DNA from: an uncultured Gammaproteobacteria bacterium
GTDB taxonomy: Bacteria; Patescibacteriota; Microgenomatia; UBA10105; UBA927
Assembly (NCBI GenBank): GCA_964461825.1
Contig: CAYWVJ010000003.1
Coordinates: forward strand, 1-41,446
Length of the DNA: 41,446 nucleotides
Reading direction: 5' to 3'
Below the pieces are notes generated by a model, which was not told the DNA's origin, did no database searches, and saw only the letters and a program-made list of their open reading frames with translations. Numbering within the stretch: position 1 is the stretch's first letter; each line of letters begins with the position of its first letter. Made by a program: the position numbers and the translations under genes. This document shows positions 1,280 through 23,878 of the stretch, piece by piece.

Positions 1280-2345
1280 CTTCCGTGGCGCCGGCAACAA
1301 TCCATACCCAGATCATAATCCATGGATAGAACGCGCTGTTGACGAAAAAACTGTCAACCAAAATCGCGGTAATAAATACGGCCATTTCGCCCCCGGACCG
1401 CGCGAGCGACCAGAGCAGAAATCCGAATGCGGCAAGCCCAATGACACCCGTCGTTGCGGCAACGAATATCATGCTGCTGTCCAGCCCGAACCCGATCACG
1501 CTGCGGACGGTATTAAATCCGTAGCCGAACAGCGGTTTTTCCTGCCAGAGCGCCAGACCCTCGTGCCAGTTGGCAACGCGCGCCAATGCCGAATCCGTGC
1601 GCAGGATATCGAGCGTGCTTCCGGCAGTCTTCGGCAGAACGACGACGATCGCAATAAATACGGCGATACCGGCCATAAGAATTTTTTTCCGCCTCAGTAC
1701 CGCGTATGCAGTGATACCCGCAATAAACGCAAGCCAGCTGCCGCGCGAATACGTAAGAAGCAGCGCAACAAATGCGATAAGTTCTCCTGCGATTCCCCAT
1801 GGTTTCTTAAGAAATGAAAAACCCAAAAGCAGCGTCAGCACCAGAAATATGCCGGCAAAGTTCGGATCGAGGAACGTGCTAAACAGCCGGTAATAATGGG
1901 GATCCCAGCCCAGATAGGAAAGGTTGCGCAAATCCGGATACAGCCAGAATTGCAAAAGTCCCAGTACGGCAACGCCGACGCCTGCGGCAAACAGCCCCCG
2001 CAGCCAGAAACGTCCGCTCAGAAATTTCTGGACCACGAGGACGTACAGCGCCGCGTACAGCAGCCACCGGCCAAGATAAAGAGCACCGGACCAGAGCGCC
2101 GCCGCGGAAAATTGCCCCGAATTGGTCACGAGCGAAAGGACGCCGGCAAGCGCAAAAAGCGCAATCGGCAAAAGGAGCCTGGGTCTTACGAATTTACCGC
2201 GCATCGCATACCGCACAAACCCTTCGATAAGCAGCGCGGCAAGCGCGACGTCGTGCAGGTATAGGACGATACCCGGCGAGGCGCGTATGGCGCCCAGCTG
2301 CCCCAACAGAAGACTGCCCAAAAAAAATACGCTGAGCCATTTCAT
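1251..2345 (-). CDS. O-antigen ligase / O-oligosaccharyltransferase-like (Wzy_C domain) polytopic membrane protein
   Basis: Multi-helix protein with the Wzy_C-type segment LLLTYSRGSWLAFIAG. Start trimmed to ATG 2345 (MKWLSVFF...), which overlaps the upstream GT2 stop as ATGA. The 2504 start would run 160 nt into that gene. Confidence 0.75.
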   Translation of the reverse strand: MKWLSVFFLGSLLLGQLGAIRASPGIVLYLHDVALAALLIEGFVRYAMRGKFVRPRLLLPIALFALAGVLSLVTNSGQFSAAALWSGALYLGRWLLYAALYVLVVQKFLSGRFWLRGLFAAGVGVAVLGLLQFWLYPDLRNLSYLGWDPHYYRLFSTFLDPNFAGIFLVLTLLLGFSFLKKPWGIAGELIAFVALLLTYSRGSWLAFIAGITAYAVLRRKKILMAGIAVFIAIVVVLPKTAGSTLDILRTDSALARVANWHEGLALWQEKPLFGYGFNTVRSVIGFGLDSSMIFVAATTGVIGLAAFGFLLWSLARSGGEMAVFITAILVDSFFVNSAFYPWIMIWVWIVAGATEVSGGRLLSS

Positions 2346-3088
2346 GGTTTGTGCCACAAAAGCCATAATTTTGCGCGCGTGAGGAACGAATGCATGCTCA
2401 TCATGACGGCCACGATTGCTCCGGGCGTGCCGTCGAGGAACCCCGCATACCATACGTAGTCGACGAAAAACTTGGCGGCCGGATACGCAAGGATGTGCCA
2501 CCACGGCACATGAATGTTTTTTTCATAGAGATACTTTGCATTCATCGTTGAATACACATTTATTTCGTCGATAAATTGTGCGACGTTAGGATGGGGGAAA
2601 TGGTCGAGGGGATTCACGAGCGTCCCGACCGTTCCTTTAACGTTCCATGTTTCGTGCACCGGCCGGTCCCAGACGCCTGCACCCTTTTTTGCGAGCCGCA
2701 CTAACCGGACGCTCCCCGTTTCCCCGTGCAGGAGCCTGCGGCCGTACATCCAGTCCTGGCGTTTAAGATAAAATCCCGCACAGTCAATGGCGACCGCCTT
2801 CCGGATTTCTCCGGCCAGTTTCGGCGACACAATTTCATCGCTGTCAACAAACAATATCCACTGGCCGACCGTCTTTGATAATCCGAAATTGCGCTGCGCG
2901 GCAAAATCGCCGTTGAGACGGCGTTTGTACACGACGGCACCGGCTTTTTTGGCGCACTGCACAGAGTCATCGGTTGAGAAATCGTCGATAACGATGCGCT
3001 CTGCGCAGAACGCGACGCTTGCCAGAGTTTTGGTTATCGAACGGCCGCTGTTGTGCGATAATATAACGGCGGAAATCACTGATCCCAT
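2342..3088 (-). CDS. glycosyltransferase family 2
   Basis: ISAVILSHNSGRSITKTL...IVIDDFSTDDS...ILFVDSDE are GT2 (GT-A, DxD) hallmarks. Start set at ATG 3088 (MGSVISAVIL). Confidence 0.85.
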   Translation of the reverse strand: MGSVISAVILSHNSGRSITKTLASVAFCAERIVIDDFSTDDSVQCAKKAGAVVYKRRLNGDFAAQRNFGLSKTVGQWILFVDSDEIVSPKLAGEIRKAVAIDCAGFYLKRQDWMYGRRLLHGETGSVRLVRLAKKGAGVWDRPVHETWNVKGTVGTLVNPLDHFPHPNVAQFIDEINVYSTMNAKYLYEKNIHVPWWHILAYPAAKFFVDYVWYAGFLDGTPGAIVAVMMSMHSFLTRAKLWLLWHKP

Positions 3089-3096
3089 TCTACCAC

Positions 3097-4086
3097 ATGA
3101 AACAGGCGCACAGGATTCTGATCGCAATTGCCGCGCTGTACATCGCGGGCTACGCATTCCACGCGTGGTACCTCAGAAAAACCGTCTACGGAGACGGCAG
3201 CTACTATTATGCGTGGCTTACGGGCTCTGCGAGTAAATTTTCGGTGGGCCCGGCGATAGCGTGGGCACCGGTATACATCGCAACGCGCAGCGAATTTGCC
3301 GTGGGCGCCGTGAGCGTTTTGGCCGCGATTTTCGGGCTTACGCTCCTGTACACCATGCTTGCACAGTCATTTTCGCCGGCCGTAAGTATCGCGAGCGTCG
3401 CGGCAGTGGCACTTGCCTCAAATCTGTTGTTTTACGGATCGCTGGACGCGGTTAATTCCCACGCGCTGTCGTTTTTTGCCGTCACGGTATTTTTGGCAAT
3501 GCTCCGCTGCCGCCGGTGGTTTGCCGTCGGCGCAACTCTTGGCGTCGTCGCGCTCATGCGCGCGCAGGATCTCGCATTCGGCATTCTCATCATTCCGCTG
3601 CTTACGAAAAAAACCGTTCTGCCTGTCGCAGCGGGATTTTTGCTCGCATTTGCACCGCAGCTTGCAGCCTGGCAGCTGGTGTCGGGGAAATTCTGGGTAA
3701 GCCCGTACCTTGTGCGCGAGGGATTTATACTCACCCGGCCGCACATACTGGACGTGTTGTTCGGCCGCGGAAACGGTCTGTTTTTGTGGACGCCGGCGGC
3801 GATGCTTGGGGCGGCAGGACTTATCACCTTCAAACGCTACGCGTACCTCATTGTTTTTCTTGCGGAGCTTTTCATCGTTGCGACGTGGAGCACGTGGTGG
3901 CAGGGCGCGAGTTACTCGGGCCGCATGTTTGTGAGCAGTCTGCCGCTCCTTGCGTACGGCATCGCCCATGTATTCTCGTGGCTTGAAACGCGCCGCTTCG
4001 GTCTTTTACACTTTTTCCTCATTATCGTCGCACCGCTTTCGCTCGTAAACGCCGTCAGCATCCTCTATTTTTTACTCACGCAGTAA
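3097..4086 (+). CDS. polytopic membrane protein, possibly a GT-C fold glycosyltransferase
   Basis: 329 aa, almost entirely hydrophobic helices. First loop is YGDGSYYYAWL. Sits inside a glycosyltransferase cluster. The function is inferred from context only. Confidence 0.55.
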   Translation: MKQAHRILIAIAALYIAGYAFHAWYLRKTVYGDGSYYYAWLTGSASKFSVGPAIAWAPVYIATRSEFAVGAVSVLAAIFGLTLLYTMLAQSFSPAVSIASVAAVALASNLLFYGSLDAVNSHALSFFAVTVFLAMLRCRRWFAVGATLGVVALMRAQDLAFGILIIPLLTKKTVLPVAAGFLLAFAPQLAAWQLVSGKFWVSPYLVREGFILTRPHILDVLFGRGNGLFLWTPAAMLGAAGLITFKRYAYLIVFLAELFIVATWSTWWQGASYSGRMFVSSLPLLAYGIAHVFSWLETRRFGLLHFFLIIVAPLSLVNAVSILYFLLTQ

Positions 4087-5148
4087 GCGCGTGTAGACGG
4101 CGGCAAGTTTAGCGGCGCCGATGCGGATATCGTGGACATCAAGCGCCCGGCTGCGCGCATGCTTCCCGTATGCATCCCGTTTTTTGGGGTGCAGGATAAA
4201 ATCACTGACTGCCGCTTCGATTGCCCGTACGTCTCCGGGCGCGACGATAACGCCGGCATTGCCGACGTTTTCCGGAATGCCGCCGGTTTTTGTCGTCACG
4301 ATCGGCAGCCCGGCGGCCTGGGCCTCCAGCAGCGCGGTGCAGTATTGTTCCTCATACGTGGGCGTTGGTTTGCTGGGGGCGACGAATATGTCCGCCCCGC
4401 GGTACACGTCCGGCATCGCATCGTACGAAACGCGGGAAACCTCAATCCAGCCGGGAATTTTCGACTCCTGACTGCCCGTGCCGACCATGCGCACCGTAAT
4501 CGGATAAGTTTTGCGCAGCCGGCGGGCCGCCTCGATAAAATCAAAAATCCCTTTCTCATACTCAAACCTGCCGACGAAAAGCAGCGTAAGTTTTTTGTGA
4601 CGCGCCCGTTCCGGCGTAAACCGTTTGGTATCCACAAAATGACTGATGACCGAAATTTTTTCGGGATCCGCGCCCTCGGCAATGAGCGCCCCGCGGGCTT
4701 TTTCTGTGAGGGCGATGATGTGGTCCAGTTCCCGCCTGGCCCGCGCCTTAAACGCGGATCTACCCCGGATTCCTTCGTTGTTGAACGGGATGGTTTCCAG
4801 TTCTGTCGCGATCACTTTTTTTACGTAGCCCTTTTGCTTTGCGTCCAGACACTGCTGCGTGTAGTGAAAATACGTTTCCGCCGTGTGCACGAGATCGAAT
4901 CCACGAAGTTTATCCTCAAGCCCCAGTAAATAGTGCGCGTCAGTAAACAGCCGGTTGAGGAGGCTCATTTTGTACGGGAAATCCGGAACGTCCACCGGCG
5001 AGGGAAGTTTGACGACCGGGAACGCAAACCGGTCGTGGTACGCTGTGAGCGACCCGAACGCCGTGACGGAAAATTTTTCCGCCAGCGGTTCAAAGAACTG
5101 CATCTCGTATCTGTTCAGAAATTTTCCCCTGACGACGGCGATTTTCAT
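4072..5148 (-). CDS. glycosyltransferase family 4 (GT-B, Glycos_transf_1)
   Basis: LLFVGRFEYEKGIFDFIEA...EEQYCTALLEAQAAGLPIVTTKTGGIPENV is the classic GT4 C-terminal E-x7-E region. ATGA overlap with the upstream gene at 5145-5148. Confidence 0.85.
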   Translation of the reverse strand: MKIAVVRGKFLNRYEMQFFEPLAEKFSVTAFGSLTAYHDRFAFPVVKLPSPVDVPDFPYKMSLLNRLFTDAHYLLGLEDKLRGFDLVHTAETYFHYTQQCLDAKQKGYVKKVIATELETIPFNNEGIRGRSAFKARARRELDHIIALTEKARGALIAEGADPEKISVISHFVDTKRFTPERARHKKLTLLFVGRFEYEKGIFDFIEAARRLRKTYPITVRMVGTGSQESKIPGWIEVSRVSYDAMPDVYRGADIFVAPSKPTPTYEEQYCTALLEAQAAGLPIVTTKTGGIPENVGNAGVIVAPGDVRAIEAAVSDFILHPKKRDAYGKHARSRALDVHDIRIGAAKLAAVYTRLLRE

Positions 5149-6485
5149 AATTGTCCGACCGAAAAGAAATCACGGATGCGCCGGTATATCGGAAGTATTC
5201 CGGACGCGCTCCTGACCGGCGAACTTTTCCCCTCCGGCTCGCGGACCACGTAGCGCATATCGGTAAATATGCGGCCATCCTTCCACAACCGGTAGTCGTT
5301 TTCGCTCATCGGCTGCGTCGGATGGAAAAAATACTGCTCGAGAATGTCGCCGGAATAATTCACCACGCCGACTTTTTCGTACGGCGCGAGATTTTTATCA
5401 ATGGCAATTGCCCTGTCGAACTGCCAGAACTGCTTTCGCACCTGCGCAAGTTTGAAATAATTGACGCCGACGGACCAAAGTACGATCGCCGCAACGATCC
5501 ACCACGACGAATGTTTTCGCATCCAGAGGGCGCCGGCAAACGAGAAAAACGGGATAAAATAAAACAGAAAATACGCATCCTCCCACGTCACGGTCGGCAA
5601 TACGATAACGTTCATGAGGCCGTAGAGGAAAAAAAACCAGAGTACGCGGTTCTTTTTTACAAAGAGCCAAACGAGCGAGAACGGCGTAAAGTACGTGATG
5701 AAACGCACGATGGAAATCGCAAAAAGCCGCACCGGCCAGACCGGCAAAGACGTAAGCGTCGGAGTGAGCGTATGTACGCCGACGGCGCCAGAAAGTTCGC
5801 GCAGCCCTCCCTGCAGACGGTACACCAACAGCACGAACCCGCCGATCGTAATGGCAGCAGCCGCGGCATAGACCAGAAACGGCCGCACGACCCGCCTCCC
5901 GAAGGCCGCGAACGGAACGAAAATATAGAGTACCCCCCAGTCCGTTAAACCCGAGAGAACCGTAAAAACGAAGACCGCATACAGGTATTTCGCCGCGGGT
6001 TTTTGAAGATACCGAAGAACGAAATATATGATGCAAAGATTAAAAAATAAACTTCCCTGTTCAAAAAATATGTATTTCCAGAAATACGTCGTCATGGGGA
6101 ATATGGCGGCAACGGCTGCCGCCCACAGCGCAGTTTGTTTGTTCCAGACGAGTTTACCGATCACATAGATAAGGAATATGTCGCCCGCGAGGAAGAAAAA
6201 ATTCGTGACGTGCACGACCCAGTTTTGAAAACCAAACAGCAGGAACGGTACGGCCGAAAGCGTAAAGATGAGCGGCGGATGATGGAGGTAGAACGGAACC
6301 GTTGCCGGCAGTTTTTCGCCGGCAAAATACGTCGGTAAAAAACTGAGCCTCGCAAAACCGAACCGTACGAAATTTTTTGCGGCGAGCGTCAGATAATTAT
6401 TGTTTGCGTTGTATCCGCCGGCAAACGGATAATTTATTCCCCACAAACTAAGAATGAGCGCTGCGCTGAGTAATAACTTCGTCAT
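5145..6485 (-). CDS. GT-C type (ArnT/PMT, GT39-like) membrane glycosyltransferase
   Basis: About 445 aa and polytopic. N-terminus MTKLLLSAALILSLWGINYPFAGGYNANNNYLTLAAKNFVRFGF resembles ArnT/PMT_2 family openings, with a C-terminal soluble tail. Start chosen at ATG 6485. Confidence 0.6.
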   Translation of the reverse strand: MTKLLLSAALILSLWGINYPFAGGYNANNNYLTLAAKNFVRFGFARLSFLPTYFAGEKLPATVPFYLHHPPLIFTLSAVPFLLFGFQNWVVHVTNFFFLAGDIFLIYVIGKLVWNKQTALWAAAVAAIFPMTTYFWKYIFFEQGSLFFNLCIIYFVLRYLQKPAAKYLYAVFVFTVLSGLTDWGVLYIFVPFAAFGRRVVRPFLVYAAAAAITIGGFVLLVYRLQGGLRELSGAVGVHTLTPTLTSLPVWPVRLFAISIVRFITYFTPFSLVWLFVKKNRVLWFFFLYGLMNVIVLPTVTWEDAYFLFYFIPFFSFAGALWMRKHSSWWIVAAIVLWSVGVNYFKLAQVRKQFWQFDRAIAIDKNLAPYEKVGVVNYSGDILEQYFFHPTQPMSENDYRLWKDGRIFTDMRYVVREPEGKSSPVRSASGILPIYRRIRDFFSVGQL

Positions 6486-7446
6486 ATAGCTGCCGGGCAA
6501 ACTCCCGCCAGCTTCGATTATACACCGGCGGTTTTTTTGGTGAACCAAGCGCACGGACCGCTTCCGCTTCCGTCGTAAACCCTTTCCTTCCCATTATTTC
6601 GGGGAGCGCTCCGGCGTTGGCAAATACGACGGGGCAGCCCGAAGCCGCCGCCTCAACCGCCGGCAGACAAAATCCTTCCCATTTGCTCGTAACCAAAAGC
6701 GCGTGCGCGCCGCGGTAGTACGCGGCAAGTTCGCGGTCGGACACAAACCCCTTCCACGCGACGTGCTCGTGTTTTGAAATCGATCCAATTTCCGGATCGA
6801 GCCAGTAATCGCCGCCGATGATAATGAGATTATACGGTTTTTTCGTCAGGTCGCGGAATTTCCGGAAGATGCGGATAGCCTGCGGTACGTTTTTTATCCG
6901 CTTTATGGCGCCGACAAACAGAACGTACGGATGTGTTTCCCTGTGTATGTTGCCTCTGCGGGAAAAATGTCCGTCAACGCCTTCGTACACGACGCGCACG
7001 TCCGCGTGACGGATGTCGCGTGCGGTTGCGCGGGAAAACGTGACGATGGTATCGGCAACGCGTATGAGTTGCTCTGTCTGTTTTTTTAGACGCGAGTAGG
7101 AATCCGGATATGCGTCGGGGTAATGAAGAAACCCAACGTCGTGAACAAACCCGACGGTGCGCGCGGTCGTTTTCGGAAGCATCTGCGACAGCCCTAAAAA
7201 TACGTCAACGGGACGGCGCGCAAGCGCCAGCGGCAGCCAGAATTTCGACCAGCCGCGTTCGGGCAGCAGCACCGGCTTCATGCGCGGGGAAAAGCGCGGA
7301 ATCGGCCGCCAGGCGTACAGGCGGTATTCGTTTGTTCTGTCGATGGCGGCAAGCTCGCGAAGCAGATTGTACGTCACGCGCCAGACGCCGACCTTTAGCC
7401 GTTCGTCGGCAACCGACAGTGCACCTGCATCAACGCCGATAATCAT
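6448..7446 (-). CDS. glycosyltransferase family 4
   Basis: VLFVGAIKRIKNV...LLVTSKWEGFCLPAVEAAASGCPVVFANAGALPEI matches GT4. The track start at 7467 is a TTG; ATG 7446 (MIIGVDAG) is preferred. Confidence 0.85.
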   Translation of the reverse strand: MIIGVDAGALSVADERLKVGVWRVTYNLLRELAAIDRTNEYRLYAWRPIPRFSPRMKPVLLPERGWSKFWLPLALARRPVDVFLGLSQMLPKTTARTVGFVHDVGFLHYPDAYPDSYSRLKKQTEQLIRVADTIVTFSRATARDIRHADVRVVYEGVDGHFSRRGNIHRETHPYVLFVGAIKRIKNVPQAIRIFRKFRDLTKKPYNLIIIGGDYWLDPEIGSISKHEHVAWKGFVSDRELAAYYRGAHALLVTSKWEGFCLPAVEAAASGCPVVFANAGALPEIMGRKGFTTEAEAVRALGSPKKPPVYNRSWREFARQLYDEVITQRSAHS

Positions 7447-8779
7447 AGATGGTAATGGCAGCGTCAATGGGTATTGTGCTATACCGCGGGTTGTTTTGCA
7501 AAAAACTTATGGTTTTTTTCAGGTACGTTTCCGGCAGACCTTTACCGAACGCATTTATGCCGTTATCGATAAGAATCATCCGCACGTCATTTTTCCGGAT
7601 ATCGTCAATCAGCCGGTCTTCGCTTCCGGGCTGCATACAGGGACCGGTGTAGGTAAAATAGGTACCCAACAGGCGCCCGGTTGTAAGATACACCTCTGCG
7701 TTCCCCGGCAAAATGATTATCTTTTCACCCGGCTGCGAATACGTTTCCACCAGCCGGCGGTAGCGGTCCGCAGTGGTATCGTTCTGCCGCAGCATTGCCG
7801 CGTAATTGGTCACGCCAAGCCATAACAAAAGCACAAAGACCGCAGCCACGGTGCGCGTCTTTTTTTGCACAGTCATCCACGCAAGACCAAACATGGTATA
7901 CGCGCCCAGATGAAACCCGTCGGGACGGATAAACAACAGCCCCGCAAGAAGTATCATTACGGCATTTCTTTGCCAAAGCAGCCATATCGCCAGCGTAATT
8001 TCCAGCGCAACGGCTGCAGTGCGGTAATCGGTGATTGACCCGCGGATAAGCGGCGAAAAATATCGCCGGTATAATTCCCACGCCGACCCTGCGCAGCCCG
8101 GATAATACCGGATGTTGTACACGATAACGCTTTGGATGTAATCGCGCAGGTTAACCGATAAGAACAGAAGCCCTGCGGGAAGTACCGTTGCGGCAACAAG
8201 CGCGGTCCGCCCCGAACGCCGGTGCACGATAAAAAAGACCATAAGCACAAGTCCGACCGCAGTAAAAAGCGGATTTGCCGTCAGAAAAACAAACTGTGTC
8301 AGCGTGAACAGCAGCCAAAACGCGTATCCGGACATGCGCTTATGCATGGTAATAAGAAGAACGGCCGTAAGCGCAGCAAAAACAACGAGCGTATCCGCCA
8401 GTACCAGATGATAGCTGTAATGCGGCGCAAGAAGTGCGTACGCCAAAAGTAACATGAGCGGCGCGGCGTACGATTTGGTGTAGCGCCGGTATAGTAAAAG
8501 AATGCCGATAAAAACTGCATAAAATATGAACCGCGGCACGGATACGCCGCACGTGCCGGTTACCCTGTAGATGCCGGCGGTTACGTAGTAAATAAGCGGA
8601 TTATGCTGGGAAATAAATGACGAATACGGACGCAGACCCCGCAGCATAAGACACCCTCCAAGCATCGCTTCTGCGCTGTCGGACAACGGCCCGAACGGCA
8701 CGATAAAAATCCCGACGACGAAAACGAGGAAAACGAACGCGGCAGCGGCAAGGTTATGCCGAATATTTTCTGATGCCAT
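7430..8779 (-). CDS. polytopic membrane protein with a C-terminal soluble domain, possibly a GT-C glycosyltransferase
   Basis: 449 aa. About 340 aa of hydrophobic helices followed by a soluble ~100-aa tail. Embedded between GT4 and GT2 genes with overlapping ends. Confidence 0.55.
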   Translation of the reverse strand: MASENIRHNLAAAAFVFLVFVVGIFIVPFGPLSDSAEAMLGGCLMLRGLRPYSSFISQHNPLIYYVTAGIYRVTGTCGVSVPRFIFYAVFIGILLLYRRYTKSYAAPLMLLLAYALLAPHYSYHLVLADTLVVFAALTAVLLITMHKRMSGYAFWLLFTLTQFVFLTANPLFTAVGLVLMVFFIVHRRSGRTALVAATVLPAGLLFLSVNLRDYIQSVIVYNIRYYPGCAGSAWELYRRYFSPLIRGSITDYRTAAVALEITLAIWLLWQRNAVMILLAGLLFIRPDGFHLGAYTMFGLAWMTVQKKTRTVAAVFVLLLWLGVTNYAAMLRQNDTTADRYRRLVETYSQPGEKIIILPGNAEVYLTTGRLLGTYFTYTGPCMQPGSEDRLIDDIRKNDVRMILIDNGINAFGKGLPETYLKKTISFLQNNPRYSTIPIDAAITIYDYRR

Positions 8780-9554
8780 CGTAAATTCCCTTCCACGGCG
8801 TACTCACCGACCGCACACTTACCTCCCTGCCGAATCCGAACATGCAGCGGAGGATCCAGCTGATTTTCGTGAGCATGAATATGGGAAGCAACACCGCCGG
8901 CCGGTGTTTCAGGAAATAATATGTTTCATTGCTGAAAAAGTCGAAATACCAGGTAAGCCGGCCTTCGCTTTTGCGCGCACCGCCGGCTGCGGCCCGTACG
9001 TGCTCGACAACGGCCACAGGCTCAAACAGTATCGTATAGCCCAAACCTTTGGCGCGAAGCGACAGGTCCGTTTCCTCCCGCAGCGCATTGCCGGTAAACT
9101 TTTCGTCTACTCCCCCAAGCGCCAGAAACACGTCTCTTCGCCAGCACATGTTGCACCCGATCACGCTGTCAATTTCCTGACGGATCTCGGACGAATACCC
9201 GCCGCTGACGCCGCCCAAAAATCCGACTCTCCCGACGTGCGTGCTCATCGGTTCTGACTTTTGTCCACGCGTCAGTACCCGGCCGGACGTTGCGGCAATC
9301 TTCGGATCGCGGAAATTCTTTCGGTGGGCGTTAATAAGTCCCGGTCGCGCGATCACGTCATCGTCTAAAAAAAGCAACAAATCGCCTTTTGCTTTTTTTG
9401 CGCCCGCGTTTCGCGCGTGCGTCATGCTCGGCCTGGTAATTTGGCGCATGACGATTATTTCCAGAATATCGCGCCGTTCCCTTTTAAGCGACGCGATCGC
9501 CCGGTGCAGTTCGTTCTCGCGTTTGTACGTCGGGATGATAACGGAAACTTTCAT
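8754..9554 (-). CDS. glycosyltransferase family 2
   Basis: MKVSVIIPTYKRENELHRAIASL...LLLFLDDDV is the GT2 signature. ATGA overlap with the upstream GT4 at 9551-9554. Confidence 0.85.
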   Translation of the reverse strand: MKVSVIIPTYKRENELHRAIASLKRERRDILEIIVMRQITRPSMTHARNAGAKKAKGDLLLFLDDDVIARPGLINAHRKNFRDPKIAATSGRVLTRGQKSEPMSTHVGRVGFLGGVSGGYSSEIRQEIDSVIGCNMCWRRDVFLALGGVDEKFTGNALREETDLSLRAKGLGYTILFEPVAVVEHVRAAAGGARKSEGRLTWYFDFFSNETYYFLKHRPAVLLPIFMLTKISWILRCMFGFGREVSVRSVSTPWKGIYDGIRKYSA

Positions 9555-10582
9555 AGTGCGCTGAAAAAATCCGCAAACTTTTTCGCCTGTTCACCGATGG
9601 AAAATCGCGCAGCAATCATGAGTCGCGCGTTATTTCCCATTTTGATCGTTTTCGTTTTGTTGCGGGAAAGCATGCGGATGTCCCGCGCCATGCCTATTGT
9701 ATCTCCCTGCCGGTAGAGAAACCCGTTGTATCCGTCTCTGATGATTTCTTTGTTTCCGCCGATATCAGTTGCCAGTACCGGTATACCTATCGCCTGCGCC
9801 TCAAGAATCGCCATGGAAATGCCTTCATGGTGGCGCGTCGGAAAAAGCAGCACGTCGACGGCGCAAAGGTGCCTGTCCACGTTTGTCACGAATCCGGTGC
9901 GTTTGATGCCGGCCGGCAGCAGTTTCAAATAAGGCCCGTCGCCGATAACCACCGCAGCCGTTTTCGTTTTCTTTGCGACTGCGGCAAACTCCTCTATTCC
10001 TTTTTCTTTTGTTACGCTGCCTAAAAATCCGATCGTAAATTCTTTGTGCGGAGTTTTCTTCACCGGTTTCCTGTCGACGCCGATATAGATGACAATGATT
10101 TTTTTATCCGGCGCGCCGCCGCGTGTTAGATCACGTTTAGTATCAGCTGAAACGGCAATGATTCGGTCGACAAAGCCGCTTGCAATAAGAAAAAAGAATT
10201 TCACGAGACCAGCCGACTCCGACGCAAACAGCGGGCCGTGTACGATCCATACGGTTTTCCTGCGCAAAAGTTTCAGGATCGGCGTCAAAAATATCATTTC
10301 AGTGAGCGACTGAAGTACGATGACCTCATACGCCGCCGCGATACGCAGGTACCGCGCAAGAAACAGCGGCGACTGAAAAAGTACCGCGAGCAGTTGTTTT
10401 TTCGTTCCGACCTCTTTCGGCAACCACGTCTCCATGCGAACGGTATACGGTTGATTTTTCAGCATTTCCAGATTCGTGAGAAGCGTGACGTCGAGATATT
10501 TCCGCAGTTCACGAAGAAGTACGACGTTATATTTTTCCGCTCCGCTGAATCTCTCCGCCGGACGAATAAAAAGGATTTTCAT
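9551..10582 (-). CDS. glycosyltransferase family 4
   Basis: GFLGSVTKEKGIEEF...LLFPTRHHEGISMAILEAQAIGIPVLATDIGGNKEII matches GT4. The start overlaps the methyltransferase stop as ATGA (10579-10582). Confidence 0.8.
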   Translation of the reverse strand: MKILFIRPAERFSGAEKYNVVLLRELRKYLDVTLLTNLEMLKNQPYTVRMETWLPKEVGTKKQLLAVLFQSPLFLARYLRIAAAYEVIVLQSLTEMIFLTPILKLLRRKTVWIVHGPLFASESAGLVKFFFLIASGFVDRIIAVSADTKRDLTRGGAPDKKIIVIYIGVDRKPVKKTPHKEFTIGFLGSVTKEKGIEEFAAVAKKTKTAAVVIGDGPYLKLLPAGIKRTGFVTNVDRHLCAVDVLLFPTRHHEGISMAILEAQAIGIPVLATDIGGNKEIIRDGYNGFLYRQGDTIGMARDIRMLSRNKTKTIKMGNNARLMIAARFSIGEQAKKFADFFSAL

Positions 10583-11340
10583 GATTTTTGAAGTACAACT
10601 GCAAATGCCTGTGGCTCAAAAAACCTCGATAGATTTCGTAAATTCGCCAGCAAGGAATCCACAAGAACAATTGGATACCATAATATTTTACTTCTTCGCC
10701 ATCTCGCCAAACCGAATTTGTTCATCACTTTATTAAAAAAATGAAATGCGTTGGTGTTGAAAAATGTAATTCTCACGATTTTCATTTTATTCTTTTCTAC
10801 AAACCTATATAGCTCCTTCAATTTTATTCCTTCTTCAATCGGACTCTCCCCTGTACCTTGTTTTAAATACTCATAGATTGGTTCGCGAAGGAAAATGTAA
10901 CCACCATGTTTAAGTATTCTATACCAATGATTGAGTGTTTTGGTTTTATTTATTGTATGATGAAGAGCGCCTAAAGATAAAATAATATCCGCTGATTTTG
11001 TTGGCAACATCACTGTTGCCATATCTGCATGAATAAATCGACCAGAAGGGATATTTTTCTTTGCAAATTTTAGCAACTCACGGGAAACATCAACTCCTAT
11101 ATATTTGATCGCATTAACAATTTTTGTGTTCAAAATCCTTCGAACAGAAACGGCAGGACCGCAACCCATATCAAGTACTACCGTTCCTCGTTTAAAATAC
11201 TCTCTTCTCAGTAAAAAAATTTTTTCTGGAATCTCCCAAGTAAAATCCTTATTACTCCTATCATTATAAAAACTTGCGATTTGATCATGATAGTTCTCTT
11301 CCAGCCTCAAATGAGAATTGGGTTTTGTAATATACCTCAT
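10579..11340 (-). CDS. class I SAM-dependent methyltransferase
   Basis: Motif I VLDMGCGPA, then IGVDVS and LKHGGYIF. The gene is strongly AT-rich (28% GC in line 10741-10800) relative to its neighbours. Confidence 0.85.
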   Translation of the reverse strand: MRYITKPNSHLRLEENYHDQIASFYNDRSNKDFTWEIPEKIFLLRREYFKRGTVVLDMGCGPAVSVRRILNTKIVNAIKYIGVDVSRELLKFAKKNIPSGRFIHADMATVMLPTKSADIILSLGALHHTINKTKTLNHWYRILKHGGYIFLREPIYEYLKQGTGESPIEEGIKLKELYRFVEKNKMKIVRITFFNTNAFHFFNKVMNKFGLARWRRSKILWYPIVLVDSLLANLRNLSRFFEPQAFAVVLQKS

Positions 11341-11388
11341 ATATTTTTTCTTTTAATAGTGTTCTAATAGCTAAGAGAGTATTGTATC

Positions 11389-13650
11389 ATGACTTATAAA
11401 CTGCCCACTATTCCTTTCTTATTAGCATTATTTCTTTTATTCTTTGTTCCCTTATCTTCTGTCAGTGCCGGATTTGGATTTATTAAGAATTCACAACCCG
11501 TATTTTCTCCCGATCAAACCAATTGGGATTCTGTGCAAGTTTTAGATTCATTTCTTATCAATCAGGGTAATTCATATGGTATGTGGTACGCGGGACATGG
11601 TACATACAATGGAGGAACGTCTGACCATTGGAAGCTTGGTTACGCGCAAATGGATAAAAGCACAAACGCATGGACAAGAAATGCTTCGATTCTATTATTT
11701 CAAGGATTATCCGATCTCCAGGAAGCCGAATCGAGTGACCCCTTCATAATAAAAGAAAATGATAACTCATATAAAATTTGGTATGACGCCTACAATCCAC
11801 CACAATCTGGTATTCGGTACGCTACATCAACAGACGGGCAAACGTGGACTAAATATTCGTCTGCAGTATTAACGGGAACGCAAGGTAAATTTGATAGCGC
11901 AGGATTGGCACGTGGAAAATCAGTCATTTACGATGGTACTGGCTATCGCATGTGGTATACAGGAAGTTCTGGCGGCGGAAAGTGGGCAATTGGATATGCA
12001 ACCTCTCCAGACGGCGTTAGCTGGACCAAACAGAACAACGGCAACCCAATTATCGTAAAAACTGAGGCGTGGGAATACGATAATTTGAGTTACCCTTACG
12101 TCTTTTTCGCATATGGAAAATACCACATGTTTTATGCGACAGGACCAGGGGATCTGCCAACAAGAATAGTATATGCAAATTCTTTAGATGGTATTAACTG
12201 GAATAAACCATCCGATCTCAATCCCGTGTTTGACCGTAATAGCTATCTTTGGGAAAGTCAAAGTATTGCCTCCCCGTTTATTCTTATCGAGGATAATAAA
12301 CTTAAGTTGTGGTACTCTGCATACGGCGTAATGAATCCCCAGAATCTGAACGATTGGCGATGGCAAATCGGGTACGCGGAGGCGCCGCTCTCAAATTTAC
12401 CCGGCGTGACACCGGAAACGAAAAAAATTTTTATCGTTCCTGGCTTCGGAGGCTCATGGAACACCGAAGCACTGCTCAACTGCCGCCTCAATGAAACGAA
12501 TCCGGAGTCGTGGACGATCACTCCCTACATAGGGTACGACGTATACCAGCCATTATTCGATACACTTAATTCGTCGGGTAAAATTGCCTTCTATTTTCCT
12601 TATGACTGGCGGTGGGGAATCACGCATACGGCGCCTGTCCTTGCGAATAAATTAGCGTCTTCAACGCTTGATACGGAAAAAGTTGATCTTATCGGTCACA
12701 GTCTGGGCGGACTGCTTGGAAAATCCTATCTTGACCAAACAACCGATGAGACCAACAAAATACGGAATTTTATTGCCGTTGGTACGCCGTTTCAGGGCGC
12801 TGTCGGGGCATATCCGGCATGGTCGGCCGGCGAAGTCTGGAGTGATAACATGCTCGCCCGTATCGGCATGACAACAATTATAAATGTCTGCGGAAAATTG
12901 AGGGCAAAAACAAACAGGGACGTCGTCAGAGACCTTATACCTTCCATAGGAAATCTCCTGCCGCGTTTTCCGTATCTTACCGATGTGAAAACACAAGAAA
13001 CGCGGTCTGCCGCTGACGCGGATAATACGTGGCCGCTTGCGCCAATAGCAAATAGTTTTAAAGGTTCACGCATAAAAACCGTATCCGGGACCGGATTTTC
13101 CACGCTTTCGGGTCTGGATGTAAAAGACCCCACGAACGGCGATCGTAAATACAATAATTGGCTTGATGGAAAACCGCAGAAGACAGAAACAAGCACCGCA
13201 GGCGACGGCACGGTACTGTCACTGGCTTCTCGCCTTGCGAACGTCGACAATACGGAGATTACTGCGACCCATTCGGGGCTCGTGAATTCGCCCACCGGCA
13301 TGCAGACGATTTTTTCGCTGCTGGGAATTCCGTGGCAAAACAGCGCCGCTCAGCCGTCAGAAATAAAAAGTGCGCTTACCGTCATCGCGTACCCGGCAAC
13401 GAGCACCATGACTGATCCTTCGCAGGCGGTACGGAAGGATATCCAGAACATGATCGGGTTCTCCAATCCGAAACGCGGATCGTACCGCCTTGCCGTCGTT
13501 CCCAAGTCGGATACCACACGGGTTTATGTAGGGCAATTTCTCGAAAACGGGCGGAACCTGTGGAAGGAATACTCGTTTAACGGAAAACTTCCATTTAGTA
13601 AAACCCTCATCTTTGATCCTGACAACCCTACAGAAGACGCACTGCAGTAA
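11389..13650 (+). CDS. secreted fusion protein: five-bladed beta-propeller (GH43/32/130-like, Asp-box-like repeats) plus LCAT-family lipase/acyltransferase
   Basis: Signal peptide ending SVSA|G. Five repeats with WY strands and SxDGxxW(T/N)K motifs. Then IVPGFGGS, FPYDWRW, GHSLGG (Ser438 at nt 12700-12702), GDGTV and THSG in the LCAT-family order. Confidence 0.8.
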   Translation: MTYKLPTIPFLLALFLLFFVPLSSVSAGFGFIKNSQPVFSPDQTNWDSVQVLDSFLINQGNSYGMWYAGHGTYNGGTSDHWKLGYAQMDKSTNAWTRNASILLFQGLSDLQEAESSDPFIIKENDNSYKIWYDAYNPPQSGIRYATSTDGQTWTKYSSAVLTGTQGKFDSAGLARGKSVIYDGTGYRMWYTGSSGGGKWAIGYATSPDGVSWTKQNNGNPIIVKTEAWEYDNLSYPYVFFAYGKYHMFYATGPGDLPTRIVYANSLDGINWNKPSDLNPVFDRNSYLWESQSIASPFILIEDNKLKLWYSAYGVMNPQNLNDWRWQIGYAEAPLSNLPGVTPETKKIFIVPGFGGSWNTEALLNCRLNETNPESWTITPYIGYDVYQPLFDTLNSSGKIAFYFPYDWRWGITHTAPVLANKLASSTLDTEKVDLIGHSLGGLLGKSYLDQTTDETNKIRNFIAVGTPFQGAVGAYPAWSAGEVWSDNMLARIGMTTIINVCGKLRAKTNRDVVRDLIPSIGNLLPRFPYLTDVKTQETRSAADADNTWPLAPIANSFKGSRIKTVSGTGFSTLSGLDVKDPTNGDRKYNNWLDGKPQKTETSTAGDGTVLSLASRLANVDNTEITATHSGLVNSPTGMQTIFSLLGIPWQNSAAQPSEIKSALTVIAYPATSTMTDPSQAVRKDIQNMIGFSNPKRGSYRLAVVPKSDTTRVYVGQFLENGRNLWKEYSFNGKLPFSKTLIFDPDNPTEDALQ

Positions 13651-14002
13651 GCAAGGGCACCAGCCAATGAAGATCAAGTAGATGCGCAAAAATCCAAAAA
13701 ATTGCGGCTGCCAGATACCCGTAGCGGATGCCAACATACATAACCAGAACGCTTGCAATGCCGATACTTATAAATACCGCAGTTGATGCCTTTTTTCCTT
13801 TTCTTTTACAGATAAAACGGTAAATTTCCGACGCAACAGCGTAAAGGATAAGGTCAACTGCTGCCGCTATGTACAGCATCGCACGCGCGGAACCGCATGC
13901 TCCGATAAATAATCCGTCGCGGCACGGATAAAAACGGTTATAGATCTCAAATGCGATGAGCAGTCCCGCGACGATTCCCGGCCAGATCCACGCATTCCTC
14001 AT
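13628..14002 (-). CDS. small hydrophobic membrane protein (hypothetical)
   Basis: 124 aa with 3-4 hydrophobic helices. ATG lies 3 nt after the tRNA-Val discriminator on the same strand. The 3' end overlaps the convergent lipase ORF by 23 nt. Confidence 0.45.
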   Translation of the reverse strand: MRNAWIWPGIVAGLLIAFEIYNRFYPCRDGLFIGACGSARAMLYIAAAVDLILYAVASEIYRFICKRKGKKASTAVFISIGIASVLVMYVGIRYGYLAAAIFWIFAHLLDLHWLVPLLTAVRLL

Positions 14003-14119: not shown

Positions 14120-14686
14120 ATGGGCGGGATAAAACGCGCGGTAGCTGCGATTTTTGATTTTTTGCAGGGAATCGTCGTCGTGCTGGCAATTCTCGTGATG
14201 GTATACCTCTTCATCATGTCGCCGCAGGAAATAAACGGCGCATCCATGGAGCCCAATTTCCGCAACGGCGAATTTATCCTGACGAGTAAAATTCTCTACA
14301 AGCTGCGCGCACCGGTACGCGGCGACGTCGTGATTTTTAAGTCTCCGGCGAACAAGGAAATTGATTATATCAAGCGCATTATCGGCATTCCCGGCGAAAC
14401 CGTATGCCTTAAAAACAGCGCATTTTACGTCAACGACCAGAAAGTGGAGGAGCCGTATTTGGCGCCGGATACGCCGATTTTCGGCGGATCGTACCTTGGG
14501 GAAAATCAGTGTACGGTGGTGCCGCCGGGCAGCTATTTCGTGGCAGGCGACAACCGGCCGCATTCGAGCGACTCACGGGAATTCGGACCGATCGGCCTGC
14601 AGGATTTTATCGGCACGGCAATTTTCCGCTACTGGCCGTTCTCTCAATTGGGCGCTCTCCCCCGCCCGACATATAGCATTAAATAG
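14120..14686 (+). CDS. lepB: signal peptidase I
   Basis: N-terminal TM helix, catalytic-Ser box GASMEPN, then GDVVIF, YIKRIIGIPGETV and GDNRPHSSDSREFGPI. Confidence 0.9.
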   Translation: MGGIKRAVAAIFDFLQGIVVVLAILVMVYLFIMSPQEINGASMEPNFRNGEFILTSKILYKLRAPVRGDVVIFKSPANKEIDYIKRIIGIPGETVCLKNSAFYVNDQKVEEPYLAPDTPIFGGSYLGENQCTVVPPGSYFVAGDNRPHSSDSREFGPIGLQDFIGTAIFRYWPFSQLGALPRPTYSIK

Positions 14687-21231: not shown

Positions 21232-21834
21232 TCAATCAAGAATCGGCACGCACTGTTTTATTTCACTATTTCTAAAGAGGATGGATTTATTTGTTGTATA
21301 CATTAATCCTTTATTTGGATTACTCTCAAAGCCCAAATATATAACTTCTACTCCCCTTCTTCTCGCTTCAGCAATTGCGGGTTGTAAGTCAGAATCAGAA
21401 CTACAAACGATTGCTTTTTTTATTGCCCTATCACAACTAGAAGAAACGAGATCAACAGCAATCCTTACGTCAACGCCTTTTTCCTTAAATGTGATACGGG
21501 ATTTGCCATTAAACATAACGATCTGTGGTCTTACGTTACCTGCTAAAATAAATTCAAATCCCTGCTTTTCCAATGACGTTTTCAGTATTCGTTGTTTTTG
21601 TATTAACTCCTTGGATTTTTTTAGTGTTTCAGGAAACTCATGATATTCTCGTAATTTTGCAGCATAAAAAGTAAATTTGTCTATATGTTCGTTTGGCACT
21701 GATAAAGAGAGAAGTTTTTTTAGATCAACGTGAATACTATCTATTTTGTCTTTTTTGACACCTTCTTGCATGAGTGCATCTTCTAGTTTGAATAAAAAGT
21801 TTTCACCGTCAATAAATAAATAAGTATTCTCCAT
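21232..21834 (-). CDS. NYN-domain (LabA/limkain-type, PIN-like) protein
   Basis: YLFIDGENF at the N-terminus, KGVDVRIAVDLV, and IVCSSDSDLQPAIAEARRRGVEVIYLGF match the NYN (PF01936-type) acidic motifs. Confidence 0.8.
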   Translation of the reverse strand: MENTYLFIDGENFLFKLEDALMQEGVKKDKIDSIHVDLKKLLSLSVPNEHIDKFTFYAAKLREYHEFPETLKKSKELIQKQRILKTSLEKQGFEFILAGNVRPQIVMFNGKSRITFKEKGVDVRIAVDLVSSSCDRAIKKAIVCSSDSDLQPAIAEARRRGVEVIYLGFESNPNKGLMYTTNKSILFRNSEIKQCVPILD

Positions 21835-22722: not shown

Positions 22723-22771
22723 CAAGGATAATCCTCGTAGGCTAACTTCTTTGTCTCAAAAACGCCGGGAT
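22723..22771 (-). repeat. proximal copy of the 49-nt imperfect direct repeat (live ftsZ tail plus 18-nt core)
   Basis: See 21076-21124. This copy includes the last 9 sense codons and the TAG stop of ftsZ. Confidence 0.85.
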
Positions 22772-23878
22772 GTCGAATTCGTCCTCTTCGGGAGGAAGCT
22801 CGTCGTCTGAAATCACCGGCGGAGCCGGAGGGGGTTTCATGTTTGACGTTTGGGAAACGGTCGGCTGCTGCGGCTGAGATGCCGCACCGTAACTTCGGCC
22901 CGAAAGTTCACGGAGCCGCTTCTTGGTCTCGTCAAACCCCGTGGCAATGACCGAAATTTTCACCTGGTCTACCATATTCTCGTCAATCGTCGCACCGAAA
23001 ATGATATTCGCATCCGGATCAACCGCCGCAGCGATCTGTTTGGCCGCTTCATCCACCTCCGCCATGGTGAGATCTTTGCCGCCGGTGATATTGAAAAGCA
23101 CGCCCTTGGCTCCGTCAATCGACATTTCCAAAAGCGGCGATGAAATTGCCGTCCGTGCCGCCGTGGCCGCGCGGTTTTCGCCGACGCCGGTACCTATGCC
23201 CATCAGGGACGATCCGGCGCTGGTCATGATCGTGCGCACGTCGGCAAAGTCCACGTTAATAAGCCCGGGCATCGTAATCAGATCTGCGATCCCCTGCACT
23301 CCCTGCCCCAGAACCGAATCCGTCACGCGAAACGCGTCTAACAGCGTCATTTTCTTATCAATGACTTCCAAAAGCCGCTGGTTGGGAATAACGATGAGCG
23401 TATCCACTTTATCTTTGAGGTTCGCAATGCCTTCCTCAGCCGTCACCATCCGGCGCGTCCCTTCAAACTGGAACGGTTTGGTCACGACCGCAACGGTCAG
23501 CGCTCCGAGTTCCTTGGCGATCTCCGCGATAATCGGCGTTGCGCCGGTGCCCGTGCCGCCGCCCTCGCCGCAGGTTAAAAACACCATGTCGGTGTCGCGC
23601 AAAAATTCCTTGAGCTTTTCGCGCGATTCCTCAGCCGCCTGTTTACCGATTTCCGGATTACCGCCGGCGCCCAGACCCCGCGTGAGATTTTCGCCGATCT
23701 GGATCTTTGTCTGCGCCTGGCACGTCAGAAGCGCCTGCGCATCGGTATTGACGCCTAAAAAATCCACGCCGCTTATCTGGCTCACTAAAATCATCGAGTT
23801 GATGGCGTTGCATCCGCCGCCGCCGATGCCGATGACCTTGATTTTGGCAAACCGCGCAATGTCTGGTTTTATGAGCAT
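22742..23878 (-). CDS. ftsZ: cell division GTPase FtsZ
   Basis: [44 protein letters not shown], and the C-terminal peptide [10 protein letters not shown]. Confidence 0.95.

Follow-up and report, generated by a model that had tools for sequence, protein, structure and literature searches.

We analysed a 41,446-nucleotide (nt) stretch of DNA deposited as coming from an uncultured Gammaproteobacteria bacterium (GenBank assembly GCA_964461825.1, contig CAYWVJ010000003.1; the whole stretch is called the window here), and in it one gene of the forward strand at positions 11389-13650. The product of this gene, the target protein, was confirmed to consist of a signal peptide, a five-bladed beta-propeller resembling glycoside hydrolase family 130 (GH130), a lipase-type alpha/beta hydrolase, and a C-terminal beta-sandwich. 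Our favoured explanation, to which we give a probability of about 0.5, is that the target is a surface-targeted serine acyl-hydrolase, possibly a transacylase, which is exported by the Sec pathway and carries an exchangeable glycan-binding module at its N-terminus. The enzyme would leave the cell via Sec and would be stabilised by a disulfide. Its catalytic engine would be the capped lipase-type hydrolase with Ser438, Asp606, and His628, packed against the C-terminal sandwich. The propeller would act as a lectin, that is, as a glycan-binding module for targeting or anchoring, and would keep the lipase attached to a surface coated with glycan, be it the wall glycan of the cell itself or the envelope of a partner cell. 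There the hydrolase would cleave or transfer the acyl chains of lipids. Only the nearest relatives of the hydrolase point to lipids as its substrate, glycan binding is suggested by the fold of the propeller and its pattern of variability, and we hypothesise that the physiological role is lipid acquisition or remodelling. The features of the gene, all on the + strand, are listed below with amino acid (aa) positions and the basis of each assignment.

11389-13650: whole coding sequence, 753 aa plus stop codon, ATG start (open reading frame (ORF) list)
11389-11469: predicted Sec-type signal peptide, aa 1-27, MTYKLPTIPFLLALFLLFFVPLSSVSA before the cut and G after it (hydrophobicity, V-S-A cut site, homologues)
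11470-12393: five-bladed beta-propeller of GH130-like fold, aa 28-335 (model, Foldseek, profile)
11737-11739: Asp117 in an SSDPF motif, aligned with Asp142 of BT3780, the catalytic residue of its EDP motif (alignments to 3r67, 4onz, 3taw, 7fip, and 9fj8)
12394-12423: short interdomain linker, aa 336-345 (alignment)
12424-13344: lipase-type alpha/beta hydrolase with helical cap, aa 346-652, LCAT/LPLA2-, BlEst2-, and family-I-lipase-like (Pfam, model, Foldseek)
12481-12483: Cys365, predicted to form a disulfide with Cys501 (covariation)
12700-12702: Ser438, nucleophile in GHSLGG, aa 436-441 (invariant, 137/137)
12889-12891: Cys501 in a cap helix, predicted partner of Cys365 (covariation)
13204-13206: Asp606 in GDGTV, aa 605-609, candidate triad acid (invariant, 137/137)
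13270-13272: His628 in THSG, aa 627-630, candidate triad base (invariant, 137/137)
13354-13647: C-terminal eight-strand beta-sandwich, aa 656-753 (AlphaFold strands span aa 662-742)

Architecture of the target protein

An earlier note on this DNA had described the ORF, its strand, and a series of motifs. The ORF and strand were present as described, every quoted motif was found at its residues, and the codon of Ser438 is AGT at positions 12700-12702, as that note had placed it. The start codon is backed by full-length homologues that align from residue 1, and the ATG is preceded, at a distance of about 10 nt, by a Shine-Dalgarno-like stretch (AAGAGAG). With 40 homologues as input, AlphaFold gave a model whose predicted local distance difference test score (pLDDT) is 91.3. 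It opens with a helix at the N-terminus; five blades of four strands each follow (aa ~30-335), then an alpha/beta hydrolase that carries helical insertions (aa ~346-650) and, last, a sandwich of eight strands (aa ~660-745). The hmmscan, AlphaFold, and Foldseek checks that the note had proposed gave LCAT and propeller matches far beyond chance. The target is most like LPLA2, LCAT, and the cap-bearing bacterial lipases in its predicted mode of action and most like GH130 in its propeller; tests for membership in each of these families gave partial or negative results. The target is not categorically new: it combines known kinds of domain in a new variant.

The hydrolase domain and its lipase relatives

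The hydrolase was compared across an alignment of 137 sequences, made of the target and 136 of 143 collected fusion proteins that carry both propeller and hydrolase. A predicted Ser438-Asp606-His628 triad is present, with the serine in a G-x-S-x-G elbow. Trp407 of the YDWR motif and Gly440/441 are likewise 100% invariant. The motifs IVPGFGGS and FPYDWRW lie at aa 349-356 and aa 403-409. The Pfam LCAT family (PF02450) matched aa 384-494 with 41.8 bits (cut-off 21, E 1e-10), and the homologues scored 26-62 bits against it. This match spans model positions 67-188 of 392 only, which is the nucleophile half. Every significant Pfam match of the hydrolase falls in a family of lipid or acyl-protein hydrolases or in a generic alpha/beta-hydrolase family (LCAT, Palm_thioest, PGAP1, and DUF676), and no carbohydrate-esterase family was found among its Pfam or structure matches. 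The lipase-type Ser-Asp-His hydrolase with a Pfam LCAT match, as first proposed, was thus borne out.

With the family profile, the best PDB matches of the hydrolase were BlEst2 (the best), Bacillus subtilis LipA, lipases of Burkholderia and Pseudomonas, LCAT (E 4.6e-6), and LPLA2 (E 1.6e-5). A separate model of aa 340-753 had a pLDDT of 95.2 and a predicted template-modelling score (pTM) of 0.93. When this model was searched against the PDB with Foldseek, the best E-value was that of BlEst2 (6wpx, 6e-12), while the best whole-domain template-modelling (TM) scores were those of LPLA2 (4x90, 0.52) and LCAT (4x96, 0.53) over ~410 alignment columns, gaps included. Further matches were family I lipases, the Pks13 thioesterase, PlaB, and an Archaeoglobus lipase. 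A profile of the post-nucleophile half (aa 452-652), which holds GDGTV and THSG, matched no LCAT or LPLA2 chain at E<=10. Therefore, the term LCAT-type is correct for the fold and the nucleophile-proximal half, and the evidence for membership in the full family is partial. The earlier statement that the LCAT hallmarks occur in the correct order was verified for the nucleophile half, where the Pfam match lies; the GDGTV/THSG half had no detectable LCAT/LPLA2 sequence similarity. The closest sequence and fold relatives also include BlEst2 and the family I lipases.

LPLA2 (4x90) and LCAT (4x96/4xx1) are, as predicted for the target, secreted or luminal enzymes of alpha/beta-hydrolase fold that have a helical cap and use a Ser-Asp-His triad, and the YDWR and G-H-S-x-G-G region of the target fits the Pfam LCAT model above the cut-off. 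However, sequence identity is just 14-17%, and neither protein has an N-terminal propeller or a C-terminal sandwich. LCAT and LPLA2 are built with a membrane-binding domain and a cap domain that bears an active-site lid (PMC6277198). In the models of the target, there is a helical insertion at aa 474-522, and the segment that follows strand 1, where LCAT carries its membrane-binding domain, is only ~30 aa long (aa 351-380). The membrane-binding domain is therefore probably reduced or absent in the modelled hydrolase. BlEst2 (6wpx/6wpy), EstA3, and the family I lipases (Pseudomonas/Burkholderia and B. subtilis LipA) share the G-x-S-x-G elbow and a later (S/T)-P-H-x-G motif with the target, but none of them has a propeller. 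BlEst2 also differs in its domain arrangement, with a TM score of only 0.36-0.39 to the propeptide form and a root-mean-square deviation of ~16 A. Outside the candidate phyla radiation (CPR), the nearest hydrolase relatives are Tissierellia 'esterase/lipase family proteins' of ~300-410 aa, which have the same core at 28-31% identity over 55-60% of the query. Unlike the target, they have neither the propeller nor the C-terminal sandwich; they are likewise uncharacterised.

With the post-nucleophile profile, a likeness of the cap helices to saposin was also seen, at E ~0.8-0.9; this is not significant and was not used. The segment that gave the weak, non-significant saposin A/prosaposin match comprises the cap helices with Cys501 (aa 478-523, nt ~12820-12957), a curiosity with regard to a possible lipid-binding cap.

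The C-terminal beta-sandwich

The C-terminal domain had been left unassigned by the earlier note, and by sequence this holds: the sandwich had no Pfam match in scans of 24 members and no PDB profile match. Matches to polyubiquitin (E ~1e-10) were rejected as repeat artefacts, being sums of 3-bit matches over nine repeats. Among 40 homologues, the identity of the sandwich tracks that of the hydrolase (Spearman 0.67), and in the exhaustive cluster-representative search aa ~338-752 behave as one unit in many proteins. The constant unit of the family is the hydrolase plus the beta-sandwich, and the sandwich always accompanies the hydrolase. BlEst2 and EstA3 also carry a C-terminal beta-sandwich on a lipase. 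In EstA3 of Thermoanaerobacter, deletion of the sandwich abolishes activity on C12-C16 esters (PMC10816834). The propeptide form of BlEst2 (6wpx) aligns with the target over more columns than the mature form (6wpy). The sandwich of the target has no sequence similarity to any solved structure.

Evidence for export

The predicted signal peptide has a lysine at position 4, a hydrophobic core at aa 7-22 with a mean Kyte-Doolittle value of 2.5, and an n-h-c organisation, with V-S-A at positions -3 to -1 before the predicted signal peptidase I cut and G after it. It is the sole hydrophobic segment of the target and is modelled as a helix (aa 7-19) at low pLDDT. An equivalent N-terminal segment is present in the aligned homologues. 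The hydrophobic core, the V-S-A site, and the homologues agree with the signal peptide proposed earlier, which was predicted here by inspection.

Cys365 and Cys501 are the only cysteines of the target, and both lie within the hydrolase. Across the 137 aligned sequences, both cysteines were present in 86 and both were replaced in 51, and none had a single one. This perfect covariation is a disulfide signature, which argues for an extracytoplasmic protein. The linkers between the domains are longer in most homologues than in the target and rich in Pro, Thr, and Ser (median 24 aa, 71% P/T/S); measured in the same way (the alignment columns for aa 334-346), the linker of the target has 13 aa. Judged by its signal peptide, the cysteine covariation, and the Pro/Thr-rich linkers of its homologues, the target is predicted to be exported via Sec.

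The propeller and its relation to GH130

The blades follow the repeat W-[DE]-x6-P-x-V-[IL] ... [MI]-W-Y ... Y-A-x-S-x-D-G-x-x-W. The five WY/FY strands and the Y-A-x-S-x-D-G-x-x-W strands lie where the earlier note had put them, including its two degenerate closing strands (LGYAQMDKSTNAWTR and IGYAEAP), and the five-bladed propeller of GH130/GH32/GH43 type that it had proposed agrees with the model, Foldseek, and profile results. Foldseek matched the propeller to GH130 structures 9fj8 and 7fip (TM 0.74-0.75, E ~1e-13), and the family profile matched 7fip at E 1.6e-25; next in fold and profile came GH137, GH117, GH43, and GH32. In Pfam, Glyco_hydro_32N (PF00251) scored 28.9 bits over aa 143-291, above its cut-off of 22.1, while GH130 (PF04041) scored 24.0 bits for the target, short of the 26 required; with 42-48 bits, some homologues exceed that threshold. 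NCBIfam gave only weak GH130 matches. The GH130 beta-mannoside phosphorylases and hydrolases (Teth514_1788, 9fj8; Teth514_1789, 7fip; BT3780, 5a7v) have the same five-bladed fold and blade motifs as the target. GH130 phosphorylases are described as intracellular enzymes (PMC7660257), whereas the target is predicted to be exported and is fused to a lipase-type domain.

In GH130 enzymes, the Asp of the E-D-P motif (Asp142 of BT3780) is invariant and essential; Asn74 and Asp363 of BT3780 bind the -1 mannose and Arg89 binds the +1 sugar; and three basic residues serve for phosphate in the phosphorylases, or two glutamates as base in the hydrolases (PMC4599007). The target keeps the first of these as Asp117, but the other -1 and +1 subsite residues that could be aligned are not kept. 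In the HMMER alignment, Asn74 is replaced by Asp53, Arg89 by Tyr67, and the Asp of the Y-Y-G-G-A-D motif, which by its position in that motif we infer to be the equivalent of Asp363, by Gly313. The H-R-R and Y-H segments of 9fj8, which we take to hold its phosphate-binding residues, align to Y-T-G and F-Y. Neither phosphate-binding basic residues nor paired glutamates were evident in the GH130-aligned segments of the target.

The Asp117 column is itself variable. Among the 137 fusion proteins it holds Asp in 36% (50/137), Glu in 15%, His in 12%, and Asn in 9%, and only 19 of the 40 closest propellers have Asp. Asn74 and Asp142 of GH130 both occupy the position just before the conserved proline of an inner strand. 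The corresponding residues of blades 1, 2, 4, and 5 (53, 117, 235, and 295; blade 3 was left out since its alignment was ambiguous) have entropies of 2.9-3.4 bits and are among the most variable, compared with 1.1-1.8 bits for the adjacent prolines and 0.35-1.1 bits for the blade Trp/Phe. With the triad invariant and the GH130 pocket positions variable, selection appears to have kept the lipase triad and not a GH130-type active site.

Two other catalytic schemes were considered. GH32 enzymes use the motifs WMNDPNG, RDP, and EC. NDPN and RDP were not seen in the target translation, and since its only two cysteines are both in the hydrolase, no E-C motif is possible in the propeller. GH43 enzymes also have catalytic or pocket residues just before an inner-strand proline. 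A GH43-like Asp/Asp/Glu triad of similar spacing (Asp47, Asp169, and Glu229) was rejected, because the same W-E motifs are non-catalytic in GH130 and the positions before the prolines are variable.

The blade type of the target recurs about 44 times in a protein of 5844 aa (P0121; 44 S-x-D-G-x-x-W motifs with a period of ~60 aa), a usage that is typical of binding or scaffold repeats. From the residue patterns, a targeting or binding role is more probable for the propeller than glycosidase activity. Two further proteins (P0131 and P0145) are likewise giant tandem arrays of this blade type. Many such blades, probably forming several propellers per protein, are also found in proteins of 900-2600 aa; those of ~900 aa are named in their sources as coming from Deltaproteobacteria and Nitrospinae.

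Exchange of the N-terminal module at a fixed locus

The hydrolase-sandwich unit was also found behind other N-terminal modules, where it is 38-44% identical to that of the target. These modules are Kelch propellers (P0065 and P0217), a PQQ/BamB-type propeller (P0146), PF06439 jelly-rolls (P0149, P0133, and P0240), SpaA-like prealbumin domains (P0172 and P0162), and a weak CBM4_9-like region (P0092); further members carry N-terminal segments without a family match. At the locus equivalent to that of the target, PF06439 jelly-roll or family-less modules were seen (L033-L036), the Kelch, PQQ-type, and SpaA-like variants being found elsewhere in the family. The GH130-like propeller is one of several interchangeable N-terminal modules.

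Across 40 homologues, the identities of propeller and hydrolase to the query are only weakly related (Spearman 0.28); the values for propeller and hydrolase are 58% and 44% in P0001, 42% and 50% in P0002, and 29% and 43% in P0017. The GC content at third codon positions (GC3) rises along the target from 0.30 in the signal peptide to 0.39 in the propeller, 0.51 in the hydrolase, and 0.58 in the sandwich, and typical genes here have 0.57-0.70. The adjacent methyltransferase gene (10579-11340, - strand) has a GC content of 0.344 and a GC3 of 0.295, while that of the window is 0.53 (GC). GC content is ~0.32-0.35 over 10550-11600 and 0.39-0.45 over the propeller; the low-GC tract runs on through the intergenic region, the signal peptide, and, less strongly, the propeller as far as ~12350. 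The pattern points to a recombination tract that includes both the methyltransferase and the propeller. Together, the varied N-terminal fusions, the weak relation between propeller and hydrolase identities, and the GC3 step point to the propeller as a targeting module.

A counterpart of the methyltransferase (54% identical) was found only in L037 among the loci checked. The lineage of the closest homologue, P0001 (contig GC 0.44), was considered as a recent donor of the tract and rejected, since the methyltransferases share only 54% identity and the propellers 58%.

In all 15 related loci (L001-L010 and L032-L037, L001 and L002 being the same place), the target has a positional orthologue that adjoins a surface-glycan cluster and precedes LepB-ParB-L27. 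These loci include ones with other N-terminal modules (L033-L036) and a split version (L032). In most loci the gene is head-to-head with the glycan cluster; in L010 and L032 the cluster gene closest to it runs in the same direction. The content of the cluster varies among loci. A single copy was seen in the sequence examined for the window and for each related locus. Nine syntenic loci from Candidatus Gottesmanbacteria, Microgenomates, and 'Patescibacteria group' assemblies each encode a relative of full or nearly full length. Identity across these loci is 34-43% for the target, compared with 59-91% for ParB (59% in L009, the Microgenomates locus, and 80-91% in the other eight) and 36-75% for IleRS. 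The target is a fast-evolving protein at a fixed locus.

In the split version (L032), the propeller ORF (6218-6979, 253 aa, with a faint GH130 match) and the hydrolase-sandwich ORF (7001-8572, P0057, 523 aa) are separate and 22 nt apart. The split is either natural or a frameshift or assembly error.

Family size, distribution, and host

A search of 5.8 billion proteins returned 1183 homologues, and among the best 120 the majority align over more than 85% of the query, with identities of 28-48%. An exhaustive search of cluster representatives gave 8817 matches at E<=1e-3 and 749 clusters (50% identity) at E<=1e-30, counts that include hydrolase-only and propeller-only proteins. Among the proteins collected, 143 carry both modules. 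The fusion is not rare but a common architecture, with at least 137 homologues carrying it. The earlier note knew of no characterised protein that joins the two modules; none turned up in limited literature searches, and the names in the sources are generic ('hypothetical protein', 'alpha/beta fold hydrolase', 'pimeloyl-ACP methyl ester carboxylesterase', and 'GH43/DUF377 family'). These searches, on Gottesmanbacteria lipases and CPR phospholipases, found no publication on the family. The family is large and was previously without functional annotation and, in those searches, without a published description, while the fusion itself is common in metagenomes.

With the hydrolase-sandwich unit as query, the named matches were all from Patescibacteria down to E ~1e-50. 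Below this, across a wide gap in score, came a few unnamed matches at 1e-27 to 1e-20, and then Tissierellia proteins at ~1e-16. The conserved two-domain core belongs to a family whose named members are all Patescibacteria (Microgenomates-type CPR). ParB of the window is ~91% identical to that of a Candidatus Gottesmanbacteria chromosome, in line with the CPR host that had been suspected. This identity and the synteny with Gottesmanbacteria and Microgenomates loci indicate that the window comes from a Gottesmanbacteria-type CPR bacterium. Four of the related loci (L004, L007, L008, and L010) come from bins that are also titled 'uncultured Gammaproteobacteria bacterium'. They have CPR-type synteny and a ParB 84-91% identical to that of the window, and their titles look mislabelled.

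Possible functions

The earlier note had proposed a glycan-recognising or glycan-cleaving propeller tethered to a phospholipase/acyltransferase. Read as a bifunctional protein, this would be a weapon or scavenger whose propeller cleaves a glycan of the partner's envelope, after which the tethered LCAT-type phospholipase/acyltransferase attacks the lipids. The strong fold and profile similarity of the propeller to GH130 enzymes, the alignment of Asp117 with their catalytic Asp, the export features, and the lipid-dependence of CPR bacteria (PMC7242380) are all consistent with this proposal, and evolution that is fast relative to the neighbours (34-43% identity against 59-91% for ParB) would be expected of a host-interaction protein. 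Nevertheless, we regard it as unlikely. The catalytic column holds Asp in little more than a third of the fusion proteins and in fewer than half of the closest propellers, the counterparts of Asn74, Arg89, and (if correctly placed) Asp363 are replaced, and the aligned segments show no evident phosphate-binding basic residues or paired glutamates. Moreover, non-enzymatic folds replace the N-terminal module in other members, including positional orthologues with jelly-roll or family-less modules. A glycan-cleaving propeller is for these reasons unlikely as a property of the family. As for attack on a partner's envelope, the export features agree with it, but the gene always adjoins the cell's own surface-glycan cluster, which makes a role at its own envelope a serious rival. 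In such a role, the target would take part in maturing the envelope of its own cell: the glycan made by the cluster would be recognised by the N-terminal module, and the hydrolase would add, remove, or transfer acyl groups on the glycan, a lipid carrier, or a lipoglycan. Other alpha/beta hydrolases carry out mycolyl transfer, and this, beside LCAT-type transacylation, serves as an analogy; LCAT and LPLA2 are transacylases besides being hydrolases. The gene abuts a Wzx/Wzy-type glycan cluster in 15/15 loci although cluster content and N-terminal module vary, the low GC content of the window's tract extends over the adjacent methyltransferase and rises gradually through the part that encodes the propeller, and LepB lies just downstream. 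On the other hand, the gene and most of the cluster lie on opposite strands, nothing shows co-regulation, and adjacency is weak evidence because CPR genomes are highly syntenic. The hydrolase has no Pfam similarity to known polysaccharide O-acyl enzymes or carbohydrate esterase families, and 15 loci are too few for asking whether the type of N-terminal module covaries with cluster content. We consider this role doubtful too.

An ordinary secreted carbohydrate-active enzyme, in which a glycosidase and a carbohydrate esterase joined by a Pro/Thr linker feed on acylated polysaccharides as in plant-cell-wall degraders, is very unlikely. It would fit the Pro/Thr/Ser-rich linkers of the homologues, the GH130/GH43/GH32 fold class of the propeller, and some source names (one source calls a fragment 'laminin G', and the Joint Genome Institute (JGI) names some members 'GH43/DUF377 family glycosyl hydrolase'). 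However, no carbohydrate-esterase family is among the matches, all specific matches being lipid-type hydrolases with caps, and the propeller pocket is not conserved. In addition, all sources that have a name are CPR, and the gene keeps a fixed place next to housekeeping genes, unlike accessory polysaccharide-utilisation genes. Several points also weigh against our favoured explanation of a surface-targeted acyl-hydrolase with a glycan-binding module. The target does keep Asp117, which leaves room for glycosidase activity in this member, and the closest subgroup conserves a polar cluster (Asp169, Arg175, Glu229, and Asp/Glu289) that could be a catalytic or a binding site. The substrate cannot be read from the sequence, and the constant placement beside a glycan-synthesis cluster could mean that it is the cell's own glycan or glycolipid and not a foreign lipid. 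The window, at 41 kb, is too short to show whether the genome lacks fatty-acid synthesis.

CPR bacteria are abundant and are thought unable to make their own membrane lipids. They generally lack lipid synthesis and are enriched in lysolipids, for which phospholipase A action has been proposed as one source, and no lipid-taking enzyme has been identified (PMC7242380). Lipid scavenging by the target is plausible. The family is a concrete and testable candidate for lipid harvesting in CPR bacteria, as it is predicted to be exported, has an invariant lipase triad, occurs as one copy per locus, and evolves fast. In a wider proposal, which we hold to be quite doubtful, Microgenomates-type CPR bacteria would obtain or remodel their membrane lipids through this family. 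It would be a housekeeping, single-copy, exported lipase/transacylase of LCAT/LPLA2-like kind, whose lectin-like N-terminal module (GH130-like propeller, Kelch, PQQ-type, jelly-roll, or SpaA-like) is matched, by recombination with the variable glycan genes, to the cell's own glycan for self-anchoring or to a host glycan for host range, and its action would yield the lysolipids of CPR bacteria. Module swapping at a fixed locus is a natural experiment on the redirection of a conserved enzyme to different surfaces, and it offers a handle on host or self recognition in organisms that are not culturable alone. The fixed locus, the invariant triad, and the swappable module make an experimental entry point into CPR lipid biology. 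If the target is an ordinary esterase, the finding reduces to the routine annotation of an uncharacterised family.

Genomic neighbourhood

The features next to the target are as follows.

1251-11340, - strand: divergent surface-glycan cluster (Wzy_C, GT2, three GT4, PMT_2-like, GT2, GT4, and methyltransferase; Pfam)
3097-4086, + strand: ORF inside the glycan cluster, 329 aa, no Pfam family (ORF list, Pfam)
13628-14002, - strand: convergent gene for a small membrane protein, 124 aa, overlapping the last 23 nt of the target gene (ORF list; no Pfam match)
14120-14686, + strand: signal peptidase I, LepB (Pfam Peptidase_S26, E 3.5e-49)

The glycan cluster also contains a 449-aa ORF without a Pfam family (7430-8779, - strand). 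The cluster of L037 likewise holds a 449-aa ORF without a Pfam family, at a different position relative to its neighbours. The small membrane protein may be a functional partner of the target: a family-less small ORF of 112-124 aa lies at the equivalent place in L001 and L034, and L005 has a weak homologue. Downstream follows the conserved block LepB-ParB-L27-methyltransferase-FtsW-IleRS. A second low-GC island at 21232-21834 (- strand; GC 0.335, GC3 0.26) encodes an NYN-domain protein (Pfam E 4.4e-14). It lies among housekeeping genes such as FtsZ (22742-23878), and the NYN-domain gene was probably acquired recently.

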